DNA from: Dehalococcoidia bacterium
GTDB lineage: Bacteria; Chloroflexota; Dehalococcoidia; Lucifugimonadales; Lucifugimonadaceae
Direction of reading: 5' to 3'
DNA length: 64,000 nt
Assembly (NCBI GenBank): GCA_965220355.1
Contig: OZ244820.1
Span: forward strand, 91,319 to 155,318
Shown: piece by piece, positions 5,001-12,608 of the stretch
Position numbering within the stretch: the first letter of the stretch is position 1
Layout: each line of letters begins with the position of its first letter
Notes under the pieces: generated by a model
Told to the model about the DNA's origin: nothing
The model's database searches: none
What the model saw: the letters and a program-made list of their open reading frames with translations, nothing else
Made by a program: the position numbers and the translations under genes

Positions 5001-5267
5001 CTAAAAACTAAACTCGTCATTTTCGTTATAAAACGAAGACGCGTCGATGGTTTCCGCAAGTCGTTGACCATTGCGGCAAATCCACTCAATGAAATCGTTG
5101 GCGAACCGACGTGAGTTGTCAGGCAGAAAATCGGTGAATCCTGACGAGTTCAACTGAGTCCATGCATCTGGAGGAATGCTGACGACAGGCGGTAGCGGCT
5201 CGATGGAATCCCCGTCGATGTTCTTTAAGCTCACGAACGATCCGAACTCAACGTGTCCATCGTCCAA
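5001..5267 (-). CDS. small acidic hypothetical protein, candidate partner of the Panacea-domain protein
   Basis: This 88-aa ORF overlaps the 3' end of the upstream DUF4065 gene by 37 nt on the same strand. No family was recognised, and coding status is unproven. Confidence 0.35.
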   Translation of the reverse strand: MDDGHVEFGSFVSLKNIDGDSIEPLPPVVSIPPDAWTQLNSSGFTDFLPDNSRRFANDFIEWICRNGQRLAETIDASSFYNENDEFSF

Positions 5268-5767
5268 AGTTCAACGTCGGTTTTTGGCACCAGCCAAGCG
5301 GTTTCATACGGGATGCTTGCTCGTTCTTGCGCCAATATCCATCCCAACTCTTCGTGCGTCATGTCCGACGCCTCTTTCGCGGTCATTAATCGCAAGGCGC
5401 CAAGCACCTCTTCAATGATTGCTCGCTCGTGTTCGCTGAAAGAAGTTGGAAGGACGTCATGTTCACCCTTGGGCACCAATCGGTGTTGCGTGTACCTGAA
5501 CACGTCTCGTCTGCGAATCTCAGCCAGTCCTTCGCCTACCCATGCATTCCGTTCCCCGAGCATTTCGCATGGAACGGGGCCTTCGGGATACTTGACATAT
5601 GTCGCGCCGGTGATCGGCTTCAAGTAGCGGGCGAAAGCGATGAAGTCGCAATAATAAAGGATCTTGTTCAGCTTCACTGCTCCGAACCAAGGGTCCTTAC
5701 GGCTGCGATGCGCGATGTGCAGTGCCAACTCACGAAATTTTTCTCTGTCAAACTGCGGCTGGTACAT
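5231..5767 (-). CDS. Panacea/DUF4065 (SocA/GepA-like) domain protein, putative antitoxin
   Basis: AVKLNKILYYCDFIAFARYLKPITGATYVKYPEGPVP matches the KLxKLLYYxD...G.PITG...GPV core of DUF4065. Confidence 0.7.
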   Translation of the reverse strand: MYQPQFDREKFRELALHIAHRSRKDPWFGAVKLNKILYYCDFIAFARYLKPITGATYVKYPEGPVPCEMLGERNAWVGEGLAEIRRRDVFRYTQHRLVPKGEHDVLPTSFSEHERAIIEEVLGALRLMTAKEASDMTHEELGWILAQERASIPYETAWLVPKTDVELWTMDTLSSDRS

Positions 5768-6767: not shown

Positions 6768-6799
6768 TGAGGGCTGAACCTTGATCCTGATCTTGCGAG

Positions 6800-7603
6800 A
6801 TGTATGCGAGTTTAACTTTGTTGGGCAAACGCCTCATAACTTCCCGCTCCTTCCTGTCGGCTCTCGCCTTGGGGATTGTTTCGATGGGATTGGTGAGTTG
6901 CGGCGATGATGCTGACGAGGCGGTTGTGCAGGTCGTAGCTTCGCCCACGTCCGAGCCTACAGCTGAGCCGCCGGCGCCAACTGCAACGATTGCTCCTCCT
7001 ACGGTCACAAGTGTCCCACCGACCGCTACGACTGCGCCGACAGAGACGCCATATTGGGCGAAGAAGATTTTGCCGGGAATGGCGATGGAGCAGTATCCGC
7101 CGGTGAATACGCGGACAGATTACGAGTTGAAGAACACGCAGGAGTGGTTGAACGGTGAACCGACTACGATGGCTGCGATCCGAGACAGCGGAAGGATAGT
7201 GTTGGTCGACTTCTGGACCTACACTTGATACAACTGCAAGAACACTTGGCCGGCCCTGAGGGCATGGCATGAGAGCTACGCTGACGCTGGGCTCACCATC
7301 CTAGGAGTGCACACTCCGGAGTTCGAATACGAGAAGAACATCGACAAAGTGCGCACGGCGGCTGAGGAGAACGATCTCGGTTGGCTGATCGTCCAAGACA
7401 ACGAATACACGACTTGGCGGTACTTCACGAACCGCTACTGGCCGGCAAAATACATTTTCGACCCCGAAGGCAACCTCCGCTTCCAACACTTCGGCGAAGG
7501 AGCATACGCCGAGACCGAGCAGTTGATTCGACTACTGCTGGATGAGGCCGGGAATGATGTGACGGGAATAGAGCCGACTTACCGGTTGGACGAAGAGGGT
7601 TAG
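6800..7603 (+). CDS. lipoprotein thioredoxin-fold redoxin (DipZ C-terminal/ResA-like) with in-frame TGA at 7226-7228, probable selenocysteine UxxC
   Basis: ORFs 6800..7228 and 7307..7603 share a frame with no other stop between them. Read-through gives IVLVDFWTYT-U-YNCKNTWPALRAWHESYADAGLTILGVHTPEFEYEK...NRYWPAKYIFDPEGNLRFQHFGEGAY. The TGA sits where the first Cys of CxxC lies in this family. The N-terminus has a lipobox (GLVSC). Confidence 0.65.
7237..7268 (+). promoter_or_regulatory. candidate SECIS-like stem-loop region downstream of the UGA
   Basis: Two candidates were found by eye. One is a mini-hairpin CAAG-AACA-CUUG (7237-7248). The other is a GC-rich imperfect hairpin GCC-G-GCCC-UGA-GGGC-AU-GGC (7249-7268), 21-40 nt after the UGA. 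Neither was computationally folded. Confidence 0.25.
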
Positions 7604-7639
7604 CGTCGAACTTCTTTGAACGCGTCATAGACTTGCCTC

Positions 7640-8332
7640 ATGAGCGTCTATTCGAATGAGCGGATTGGGGCAATAAGCCAAAACGAGCTCCCACGATCCA
7701 TTCTCCGCGATGCGCGGGTGGTGATGGATGGGTTAGAACTTCTGGGACAACTACCTGAGGCTTGTGCGGCGGCGGCGTTTTTCGATCCGCAGTATCGCGG
7801 TGTGTTGGACAAACTGGGTTATGGCAACGAGGGAGTGTTGCGGGGACAGAAGCGGTCTGCGTTGCCGCAGATGTCGTCAGAGGTCATCGGCGAGTTCATT
7901 CGGGGAATTGGTAGGGTTTTGGGACCTAGTGGGCATTTGTTCCTTTGGATCGACAAATATCACCTCTGCTCTGGCATCGGTGAGTGGATCGAAGGGACGA
8001 ACCTCGAGACCGTTGACCTTGTGACCTGGAACAAGGGTCGGATGGGTATGGGCTACCGCACGCGGCGCAAGGCCGAGTATCTAATGGTTCTGCAAAAGGC
8101 TCCCAAGCGGGCGAAAGGCGTATGGACGCGGCACGACATTCCGGATGTTTGGGAGGAGAAGCCGTCGTCGAAGGTTACCCATTCGAAGCCAGTCGGGTTG
8201 CAGCAAGCGTTGCTCGAGGCGGTTACAGCGCCCGGGGATGTAGTCCTGGATCCGGCGGCGGGGAGTTTCAGCGTGATGCAGGCGTGTCAATTGGCGGGGA
8301 GAACGTTCGTGGGTTGTGATGTTAATGGGTGA
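7640..8332 (+). CDS. beta-class N6-adenine/N4-cytosine DNA methyltransferase (orphan)
   Basis: A motif IV variant FFDPQYRG lies near the N-terminus, THSKP lies in the middle, and the AdoMet motif VLDPAAGSFS lies near the C-terminus. The IV-then-I order indicates the beta class. Confidence 0.75.
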   Translation: MSVYSNERIGAISQNELPRSILRDARVVMDGLELLGQLPEACAAAAFFDPQYRGVLDKLGYGNEGVLRGQKRSALPQMSSEVIGEFIRGIGRVLGPSGHLFLWIDKYHLCSGIGEWIEGTNLETVDLVTWNKGRMGMGYRTRRKAEYLMVLQKAPKRAKGVWTRHDIPDVWEEKPSSKVTHSKPVGLQQALLEAVTAPGDVVLDPAAGSFSVMQACQLAGRTFVGCDVNG

Positions 8333-8434
8333 ACTTGACCTGCCGATCTTGGCGCACAACTGACCGATTTCGCTCTATCGAGTTTCGTTTTCCGGCTTTC
8401 CGGCTCTTGGATAGCGCGTTCCAAATTTGGCCTT

Positions 8435-8563
8435 CTTGCAATTGGACGAGCATCTACCTGGCAATCATACGAGTGTTAAACTTGCAATCATACGGGCAAT
8501 AACCTTGCAATTGGACGAACACTAACCTTGCAATTGGACGAGCATCTACCTGGCAATTGGACG
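8435..8563. repeat. array of about 5.5 degenerate ~23-bp tandem repeats ([CT][TG]GCAAT followed by TGGACGA or CATACG)
   Basis: Units start near 8435, 8459, 8481, 8504, 8527 and 8551. The sequence cttgcaattggacgagcatctacctggcaat occurs twice exactly (8435-8465 and 8527-8557). The array ends at the ATG of the ATPase gene. Confidence 0.6.
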
Positions 8564-9862
8564 ATGGGACAGCATCAACTCCGCAGGCGTTTCATCGAGC
8601 CGCGCTTGGTCGAAGCGTTGGAAGATTCGCCCGCTGTCTTGATCCAGGGGCCGCGGCAGTGCGGGAAGACGACGCTCGCACAAATGGTGTGCGCGCCCGA
8701 GCATCTTCCAGAACGCGTGTCGCGGATCGGAGATGGCGAAGACCGAGGCTATGGCTATATCTCCTTCGACGATGACGTCGTCCGATTAGCCGCAGAGGCC
8801 GATCCGATGGGATTTATCGCCGAACTCCCGGAGCGTGTCGTGTTAGACGAGATACAGCGCGTACCGAGGCTTTTCACCGGACTGAAGTTGGCACTTGACC
8901 GCCGAAGAACGCCTGGGCGATTCGTTCTGACGGGCTCAACGAACGTGTTGGCGGTACCGACCGTGCAAGACTCACTTGCGGGACGTCTGGAGATGATTCC
9001 GCTGTACCCTTTGGCGCAAAGCGAACTGCACTTGCCAACCCCGACCGAACGCGGGTTCATCGACGCACTGTTCACGGACGGATTCCCAATACGCCAGACT
9101 GAACGGCTGGGAATGACTTTGATCGATCGCATCGTTGCGGGCGGCTACCCTCCGGCACTGGCACGCCCAACCGGGCGACGGCGGGCTAATTGGTACCGCA
9201 ACTTCATCGAGGCTCAGGTTCAGAGGGACGTCGGCGACGTATCGCGCATCCGAGGGCTCACTTCGCTACCGAGGTTGCTCCAGCTCGTCGCCGCGCAGAC
9301 GGCGCGGCTGTTCAATCTCTCCAACCTTTCCGCTCCTTTCCAACTCAGCCGGACCACCATTGGGGACTACGTCGCGCTACTGGAGCGTGTTTACTTGTTG
9401 GAGCTACTGCCGCCTTGGCACAGCAACTTGGGAAAACGTTTGATCAAGACACCCAAAATCCACATCGGCGACACTGGCCTAGCGTCTTCACTGCTAAGGA
9501 TGACGGAGACTGCGTTGCGGGCGAATAGGAGTTTGATGGGCGCGTTGCTGGAAACTTTTGTGTTTCAAGAGCTGCGCAGACAGGCAAGTTGGCATGACGA
9601 CACCATCGAGTTTTTCCACTATCGCGACAAGGATCAGGTGGAGGTCGATGTCGTGATGGAATCAGGTGGCATGGTTGCGGGTGTAGAAGTCAAAGCATCA
9701 TCTACCGTCACGAACTCGGACTTTCGAGGGTTACGCAAATTAAAGAGTGTTTGCGGGTCGAGTTTCGCGGGCGGCGCGGTGCTTTACGACGGCTCGACCT
9801 GCGTCGGCTTTGGCGGCGGAATGTACGCGGTTCCGATCCGGTTGCTCTGGGAAGGGGTTTAA
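8564..9862 (+). CDS. AAA ATPase with DUF4143-type C-terminal PD-(D/E)xK-like domain
   Basis: Walker A is GPRQCGKTTLA and Walker B is VVLDEIQRVP. The C-terminal YRDKDQVEVDVVME...VAGVEVKAS is nuclease-like. ATG at 8564 is preferred to the TTG at 8528, which lies inside the repeat array. Confidence 0.8.
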   Translation: MGQHQLRRRFIEPRLVEALEDSPAVLIQGPRQCGKTTLAQMVCAPEHLPERVSRIGDGEDRGYGYISFDDDVVRLAAEADPMGFIAELPERVVLDEIQRVPRLFTGLKLALDRRRTPGRFVLTGSTNVLAVPTVQDSLAGRLEMIPLYPLAQSELHLPTPTERGFIDALFTDGFPIRQTERLGMTLIDRIVAGGYPPALARPTGRRRANWYRNFIEAQVQRDVGDVSRIRGLTSLPRLLQLVAAQTARLFNLSNLSAPFQLSRTTIGDYVALLERVYLLELLPPWHSNLGKRLIKTPKIHIGDTGLASSLLRMTETALRANRSLMGALLETFVFQELRRQASWHDDTIEFFHYRDKDQVEVDVVMESGGMVAGVEVKASSTVTNSDFRGLRKLKSVCGSSFAGGAVLYDGSTCVGFGGGMYAVPIRLLWEGV

Positions 9863-12518: not shown

Positions 12519-12608
12519 TGGCGGAGGGGACAGGATTCGAACCTGCGGTCACTGTGAAGTGACACTGGTTTTCAAAACCAGCGCATTAAACCGCTCTGCC
12601 ACCCCTCC
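12519..12608 (-). tRNA. tRNA-Ser (anticodon UGA), CCA-encoded, long variable arm
   Basis: The reverse complement reads GGAGGGGTGGCAGAGCGGTTTAATGCGCTGGTTTTGAAAACCAGTGTCACTTCACAGTGACCGCAGGTTCGAATCCTGTCCCCTCCGCCA. The anticodon stem CTGGT/ACCAG encloses the loop TTTGAAA, which gives anticodon TGA. Confidence 0.9.

Follow-up and report, generated by a model that had tools for sequence, protein, structure and literature searches.

Thioredoxin-fold selenoproteins with a UxxC motif, in which U stands for selenocysteine (Sec), have been catalogued from marine metagenomes since 2005, under the names 'thiol-disulfide isomerase-like', 'Prx-like thiol:disulfide oxidoreductase' and 'redoxin family protein'. 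Here we describe a redoxin gene at positions 6800-7603 (+ strand) of a 64-kb stretch of DNA, hereafter called the window, whose host is a marine, probably sponge-associated Dehalococcoidia bacterium. The region is very probably one functional gene encoding a genuine selenocysteine-containing thiol-disulfide oxidoreductase: it has a single reading frame, a conserved internal TGA, purifying selection on both halves, a hairpin resembling a selenocysteine insertion sequence (SECIS), a thioredoxin fold and a lipobox. As the original prediction of this gene had stated, proteins with such a Cys-to-Sec replacement are a known class. The catalogued families resemble the window protein in their domains (AhpC-TSA and Thioredoxin_8, with Redoxin in homologues), in carrying Sec at the N-terminal nucleophile, in their marine metagenomic origin and in having a bacterial SECIS (bSECIS) directly after the UGA, the agreement being one of domain and motif with the table entries (reference members MGB1650493.1, MAK15852.1, WP_010940744.1 and MBA3499694.1). 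The accounts that reviews give of these families mention no DipZ-C-like subtype, no lipoprotein form and no Dehalococcoidia, and our literature search found no paper linking DipZ-like or NHL-thioredoxin proteins with Sec.

Several other described systems are also close. The thioredoxin domain of DipZ (Rv2874; PDB 2HYX and 5CYY) is extracytoplasmic, and its DFW..C.NC, GVHTPE, NRYWPA and FGEG motifs align with the window protein. However, DipZ has Cys, a fused N-terminal CcdA-type membrane domain and a C-terminal PF17991 domain, whereas the window protein is a predicted stand-alone lipoprotein lacking both domains. ResA, TlpA, StoA and DsbE (CcmG) are likewise membrane-tethered proteins with a TlpA-like thioredoxin fold, and they serve as reductants that receive their electrons from CcdA or DsbD; their motif is CxxC, with Cys in place of Sec, and the window locus lacks a cytochrome-c-maturation or sporulation gene context. 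Etrx1 and Etrx2 of Streptococcus pneumoniae (PDB 2YP6 and 4HQZ), which are the electron donors of an extracellular methionine sulfoxide reductase, combine a lipoprotein anchor with a TlpA-like thioredoxin domain outside a single-membrane cell, but their sequence similarity is distant (E ~3e-6), they contain Cys, and no msrAB adjoins the window gene. Finally, human NHLRC2 and Arabidopsis SOQ1 share the same thioredoxin-domain subtype (PDB 6GC1 and 7DJJ; E ~1e-20 to 1e-22); unlike the window protein, which is a thioredoxin module only, they and their bacterial thioredoxin plus NHL-repeat (Trx+NHL) homologues are about 500 residues long, carry an NHL beta-propeller and have no lipobox.

Reading frame, fold and conservation of the TGA

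On the plus strand, 6800-7603 translates in one frame into 267 residues followed by a TAG stop codon (7601-7603), and the sole internal stop is the TGA at 7226-7228. The list of open reading frames (ORFs) cuts the gene in two at this codon, giving 6800-7228 (142 amino acids, ATG start) and 7307-7603 (98 amino acids, GTG start). Translation confirmed what had been claimed of this split, namely, that both pieces lie in one frame, that the 26 codons separating them are open and that the downstream piece has no ATG, since no in-frame ATG occurs 3' of the TGA. The residues around the TGA read ...IVLVDFWTYT-U-YNCKNTWPALRAW...GVHTPEF...NRYWPAKY...FGEG..., and the complete product consists of a lipobox-bearing signal peptide, a linker rich in Pro, Thr and Ala, and a thioredoxin-fold domain of TlpA/DipZ-C-like type that carries UxxC. 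The putative Sec-encoding UGA occupies the N-terminal nucleophile position and aligns to the first Cys of CxxC, while the TGC at 7235-7237, which encodes the predicted resolving Cys of U-Y-N-C, is invariant in the orthologue alignment.

With U replaced by C, the protein matched Pfam AhpC-TSA above threshold (1.3e-10; 41.7 bits, cut-off 26) and Thioredoxin_8 just below it (26.3 bits, cut-off 27). Its best match among solved structures was the C-terminal domain of Mycobacterium tuberculosis DipZ (2HYX and 5CYY, E=3.9e-37), followed by SOQ1, NHLRC2 and Bacillus subtilis YkuV. The 2HYX alignment runs unbroken across the TGA over about 150 residues and sets the TGA against the first Cys of CxxC. 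Matches to the NCBIfam models for ResA, StoA, TlpA and DsbE were weak and sub-threshold (best, 31.6 bits against the ResA cut-off of 170; the rest lower), and because these scores lie far under the family cut-offs, the protein is not an orthologue of any of the four. The redoxin gave no Pfam match to a CcdA/DsbD-type membrane domain or to PF17991 and ends about 20 residues past the thioredoxin domain. Judged by sequence, the protein is a TlpA-like/DipZ-C-like thioredoxin module and the orthologue of no named enzyme; it would work like the DipZ thioredoxin module without being a DipZ orthologue. The predicted DipZ-C-terminal/ResA-like fold was thus borne out by 2HYX together with the weak but specific NCBIfam matches, and the placement of the TGA at exactly the first Cys of CxxC by 2HYX and the alignment of Cys homologues.

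The top protein-database matches were truncated pieces of 112 to 132 amino acids, 73 to 82% identical to the downstream half. The contigs from which these pieces derive (L001-L006) all carry an in-frame TGA at exactly the same codon, and in the longer orthologue contigs the redoxin gene (+) lies between a DHDPS gene (-) and an N6_N4 methyltransferase gene (+). The locus on L075 (OZ240225.1), the 3.08-Mb chromosome of a Dehalococcoidia metagenome-assembled genome (MAG), is nearly identical to the window. The TGA was kept in 10 of the 10 distinct orthologous sequences examined, whose sources include Tara Oceans, sponge and other samples, and four independent assemblies of the window's strain, from long reads (ENA) and short reads (Logan), had an identical TGA with identical flanks. 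Single-base errors occur in metagenome assemblies, and the TGA might in principle be a misread TGC or TGT, but nothing specific speaks for this here; the agreement of the four assemblies practically rules such an error out, and the presence of the same codon in diverged orthologues from different sample types argues against it as well.

Selection was measured on the same 10 orthologues. The median ratio of nonsynonymous to synonymous substitution rates (dN/dS) was 0.078 upstream and 0.135 downstream of the TGA, with a mean pairwise dS of 1.28 and 0.75, respectively, and these low ratios on both sides indicate that both halves are translated and constrained. Purifying selection on the 26 codons after the TGA, which include the remainder of the active site, matches that on the rest of the gene. 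The frame decay that the original prediction had named as the mark of a pseudogene was not found in any orthologue, the TGA being conserved throughout and dN/dS lying near 0.1 on both sides. That gene callers and public databases annotate two 'hypothetical protein' fragments would fit a nonsense-mutated pseudogene, or two small proteins consisting of the 142-residue N-terminal piece and a re-initiated C-terminal piece. However, a decaying pseudogene would not keep its TGA in all orthologues at a dS near 1, nor in at least 118 species, and the constraint on the 26 codons that separate the TGA from the earliest possible start, together with the lack of a downstream in-frame ATG, also speaks against this explanation. 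A cut through CxxC would, moreover, destroy a thioredoxin fold that aligns continuously to 2HYX. The conservation data effectively refute this explanation, which we regard as very improbable.

The nearest Cys homologues, three proteins from Chloroflexi MAGs that are about 60% identical to the window protein, have a TGC codon at this position, within DFWTYTCINC or DFWTYSCYNC, and a metagenome scan recovered 119 Cys-form genes with the same flanking motif. The Cys/Sec (TGC/TGA) alternation that had been expected was therefore seen, the forms with TGC at about 60% identity also lacking the hairpin described below.

The hairpin after the UGA and the probable decoding of selenocysteine

RNAalifold, applied to 10 orthologous segments reaching from the UGA to +60, predicted one hairpin, in columns 24 to 43, corresponding to window positions 7249-7268. 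Combined with published bSECIS constraints, this gave a bSECIS-like hairpin at 7245-7273 (+ strand) of -13.6 kcal/mol. In its core stem of 4 + 4 bp, 7249-7256 pairs with 7260-7268, with A7264 bulged; the apical loop, U-G-A, lies at 7257-7259, 28 nucleotides (nt) past the UGA codon; and three outer pairs join 7245-7247 to 7271-7273. The GC-rich hairpin proposed to follow the UGA was thus found and is conserved as a stem-loop beyond the window's own sequence: 96% of the cells were paired across the orthologue alignment, a value that fell to 12 to 42% when partners were slid by one to three columns. The loop-closing C-G pair is replaced by U-A in three sequences (one fully compensatory pair) and by U-G in one, and pairing is kept by one-sided changes at four further pairs, including G-U to A-U, G-C to G-U and C-G to U-G. 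In the most diverged orthologue (L005), three core pairs are broken, and a 7-bp hairpin of its own, with the loop CGGGCU, lies 3 nt further on.

The bSECIS constraints comprise a loop of 3 to 9 nt, an upper stem of 4 to 16 bp, a G in loop position 1 or 2, a distance of 16 to 37 nt from the UGA and a minimum free energy (MFE) of -7.5 kcal/mol or lower (PMC13188914). The window hairpin passes them, with -13.6 kcal/mol, a 3-nt loop with G second and a spacing of 28 nt. So did 108 of 117 distinct Sec-form genes (92%), a set dominated by one family, versus 28 of 119 Cys forms (24%; Fisher p=3e-29). Among the Sec forms, loops concentrate at two distances, +29 for the NHL type (AGUU) and +32 for the clade of the window (UGA). 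None of the three nearest Cys forms passes (best values, -0.9 to -2.1 kcal/mol), yet they encode a near-identical peptide at the hairpin, two of them the same PALRAW, which indicates that the codon choice that produces the hairpin goes with the TGA. The synonymous-site conservation figure was 0.14 to 0.26 around the UGA, lower than the 0.45 to 0.58 upstream, and since similar dips occur elsewhere in the gene, we count this as weak support.

The genetic code is not reassigned, because TGA is the ordinary stop of 25 of the 70 non-overlapping window ORFs of at least 80 amino acids; a reassigned TGA was rejected on this ground. The support for Sec machinery is at the level of the lineage and comes from the literature on related lineages. 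In a study of the metagenome of the sponge Aplysina aerophoba, symbiont bins were enriched in SelA and SelB, and its supplementary COG table assigns SelA, SelB and SelD to each of the five SAR202 bins (Slaby et al. 2017, PMC5649159). An orthologous fragment of the redoxin gene is recorded from the A. aerophoba metagenome assembly MKWU01, and the G+C content of the window, 56 to 57%, matches two of the five SAR202 bins. BSepDB, which takes in only species with the Sec pathway (SelA, SelB and SelD as search queries), credits Dehalococcoidia bacterium UBA1141 with 49 selenoprotein genes and a further Dehalococcoidia MAG with 46, both being in its top ten (PMC13326102). UBA1141 is the genome of locus L035, a carrier of the Trx+NHL Sec form described below.

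Several results weigh against selenocysteine at this codon. Searches with ARAGORN, and with tblastn using Escherichia coli SelA, SelB and SelD queries, found no tRNA-Sec, selA, selB or selD in the 64-kb window or in 124 related loci (about 1 Mb). Folding of 7226-7300, which had been suggested as a check, did show the hairpin, but its single-sequence stability was unremarkable (MFE, -22.1 kcal/mol; z-score, -0.83; second test, z -0.5); as such a z-score alone is no SECIS evidence, we used the comparative and model-based tests. Among random synonymous recodings of the window's peptide, 44% reach -7.5 kcal/mol and 6.9% reach the native -13.6. The G of the apical loop U-G-A precedes an A, not the G or U of the commonest consensus, and the covariation amounts to one fully compensatory pair among closely related sequences. 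No bacterial-SECIS Rfam family was detected in a gathering-threshold scan of the whole window or in an E-value scan of 7150-7350, which returned chance matches only. Lastly, no CcdA/DsbD partner gene adjoins the redoxin gene, nor does any other partner or substrate gene. Given the one-family Sec set, the recoding rates and the loop G followed by A, the hairpin at 7245-7273 is good supporting evidence for Sec but not proof alone.

Two of these results, the lack of Sec machinery in the window and related loci and a hairpin that alone is only moderately unusual, would also suit a selenium-free alternative, in which read-through of UGA 7226 inserts a standard amino acid (by a near-cognate Trp, Cys or Arg tRNA or a suppressor tRNA) and the hairpin is a general stimulator. 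However, the codon is that of the catalytic nucleophile, where only Cys or Sec would keep activity, and the Cys forms use TGC. The Sec-specific SECIS model is, in addition, met far more often by Sec forms than by Cys forms, TGA is a regular stop in this genome, and related Dehalococcoidia are documented Sec users with dozens of selenoproteins. We consider read-through of this kind improbable, if somewhat less so than a pseudogene or split gene.

Under the preferred interpretation as a selenoprotein, SelB with Sec-tRNA(Sec) would bind the hairpin, whose core lies 20 nt past the UGA, and decode UGA 7226-7228 as Sec, giving a product with a U-Y-N-C active site on a thioredoxin fold of the TlpA/DipZ-C-terminal type. 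The pre-protein would be exported and lipidated at Cys34 (numbered from ATG 6800), on the outer face of the cytoplasmic membrane. There, disulfides or other oxidised sulfur of substrates outside the cytoplasm would be attacked by the selenolate, the Cys at the CxxC position (7235-7237) would resolve the selenenyl-sulfide, and re-reduction of the enzyme would fall to a membrane electron shuttle of the CcdA/DsbD type whose gene would lie elsewhere in the genome. A U-Y-N-C site of this kind would make a strongly nucleophilic disulfide reductase that is resistant to over-oxidation.

The window was also scanned twice for in-frame TGA codons, the second time with a codon-usage score and the bSECIS model, and no other convincing selenoprotein candidate was found in it. 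A 90-nt tRNA with a long variable arm at 12519-12608 (- strand) was considered as tRNA-Sec and rejected, since its anticodon is UGA, whereas tRNA-Sec has UCA; it is a tRNA-Ser reading UCA. The same tRNA-Ser lies near the redoxin gene in L075 and L082 and is also the sole Rfam gathering match in the window.

Lipid anchor, gene start and neighbourhood

The redoxin is a predicted bacterial lipoprotein whose N-terminal signal peptide ends in a lipobox with an invariant Cys. The lipobox, L-V-S-C, is encoded at 6890-6901 (+ strand), and its Cys codon (6899-6901) would specify the lipid-modified first residue of the mature protein. A PROSITE-type lipobox pattern, {DERK}(6)-[LIVMFWSTAG](2)-[LIVMFYSTAGCQ]-[AGS]-C, matches the window protein at LGIVSMGLVSC and is present in 11 of 11 DFWTYT-U-YNC loci, the window included; of eight short Sec forms that are less closely related, five have it. 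The LVSC lipobox, from which a location outside the cytoplasm had been predicted, thus held up, being conserved in all orthologues. Between the lipid anchor and the catalytic domain, the translation shows a low-complexity tether rich in Pro, Thr and Ala (6902-7051, + strand), which varies in length and sequence among orthologues, whereas the domain 3' of it is conserved.

The extent first proposed for the gene, 6800-7603, stood as regards the frame and the TAG end, but translation probably does not begin at its ATG (6800). In the orthologue comparison, the triplet matching this ATG is ATA in L006, and in L039 it is an ATG followed immediately by TAA. A TTG at 6818 or 6821 is probably the start instead; it would leave the signal peptide and lipobox intact. 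The ATG is embedded in a conserved 23-nt motif, tGCGAGATGTATGCGAGTTTAAC (6794-6816, + strand), which lies at or just 5' of the gene start and is near-invariant in 11 orthologous loci. The motif contains a GCGAG direct repeat, and a consensus scan of it gave just a weak hairpin plus a T-run. Since its ATG is disrupted in two of these loci, L006 and L039, the motif is probably non-coding, as a 5' leader or regulatory site, with the TTG as the probable start.

At the other end of the gene, comparison of L075 with window positions 7560-7640 revealed an indel. The L075 product ends in ...TYRLDEASNFFERVIDLPHERLFE and is 16 residues longer, extending towards the methyltransferase start, while the window product ends in ...TYRLDEEG. 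This difference may reflect an assembly error in one of the two or a real frameshift.

The neighbours of the redoxin gene are sucCD, a DHDPS-family gene, a DNA methyltransferase gene and a gene for an AAA_14/DUF4143 ATPase. The redoxin gene borders a variable stretch of mobile- or defence-type genes; its sucCD and DHDPS side is conserved. In the window, this stretch (5231-5767 and 7640-9862) encodes a SocA_Panacea-domain protein, an N6/N4 DNA methyltransferase and the AAA_14/DUF4143 ATPase; in orthologous loci (flanks of L001, L002 and L006), it holds DUF2283/DUF4258 pairs or an Mrr-type restriction fusion. A 601-residue Fic-domain protein is encoded at the window's left end (623-2428, + strand).

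Predicted selenocysteine-containing relatives and significance

A DNA-pattern scan of one genome per species for GAYTTYTGGACNTAYNNNTGANNNAAYTGY gave at least 118 matches, showing an in-frame DFWTYxUxNC in at least 118 species genomes, with all listed matches open in frame on both sides. The carriers are mostly Dehalococcoidia and also include Chloroflexia, Gemmatimonadota, Thermoleophilia, NC10, Armatimonadota and Fervidibacter sacchari. The listed matches fall into two groups, short forms, mostly lipoproteins, and proteins of about 500 residues with a thioredoxin domain and NHL repeats. The latter Trx+NHL form (DFWTY[C/G]-U-INC) occurs in at least 90 species genomes (for example, loci L027, L014, L035 and L056 among L007-L124), with Sec predicted at the same codon, and its bSECIS is canonical and very uniform, with a CCGC/GCGG stem and the loop AGUU at +29. 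One carrier, Fervidibacter sacchari PD1 (NZ_CP130454.1, locus L027), is cultured, and the Trx+NHL Sec form is therefore experimentally testable. OY761846.1 encodes both forms, a Trx+NHL protein (L068) and a lipoprotein (L039).

A clade of four loci with more distant short forms (L051, L085, L098 and L109; DFWTYI-U-INCRRT..., lipobox present) and a separate locus, L121 (DFWTYS-U-INCKRT, no lipobox match), keep the TGA and fail the canonical bSECIS model. Their best hairpin energies were -3.3 kcal/mol for L051 and +2.3 kcal/mol for L121, and these loci may have a non-canonical SECIS.

Public annotation hides the redoxin gene. In its clusters, with about 100 members, every member listed is a truncated piece, and the few that are named are called 'hypothetical protein'; the prediction that gene callers easily miss it agrees with the fragments that public databases store. 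As a consequence of these truncated entries, proteome and metabolic reconstructions of these Dehalococcoidia overlook an extracytoplasmic redox enzyme and underestimate selenium dependence. The redoxin gene, annotated publicly as two hypothetical fragments, adds to an already recognised class of bacterial selenoproteins; the understanding of Sec decoding and of thioredoxin-fold selenoproteins is unchanged, and the value of the finding lies mainly in annotation, with no surprise to the specialist.

For the lineage, already reported to be unusually rich in selenoproteins, the finding adds a predicted lipid-anchored, outward-facing UxxC selenoenzyme, and it draws attention to a far larger group of Sec-containing proteins related to human NHLRC2 and plant SOQ1. 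We propose only tentatively, and with more doubt than conviction, that the DFWTYT-U-YNC lipoprotein clade and its sister Trx+NHL clade are selenoprotein subfamilies not separately listed in current catalogues. If they are, an exported, lipid-anchored selenoenzyme on a single-membrane cell would offer a way into the extracytoplasmic redox chemistry of selenium in sponge symbionts.

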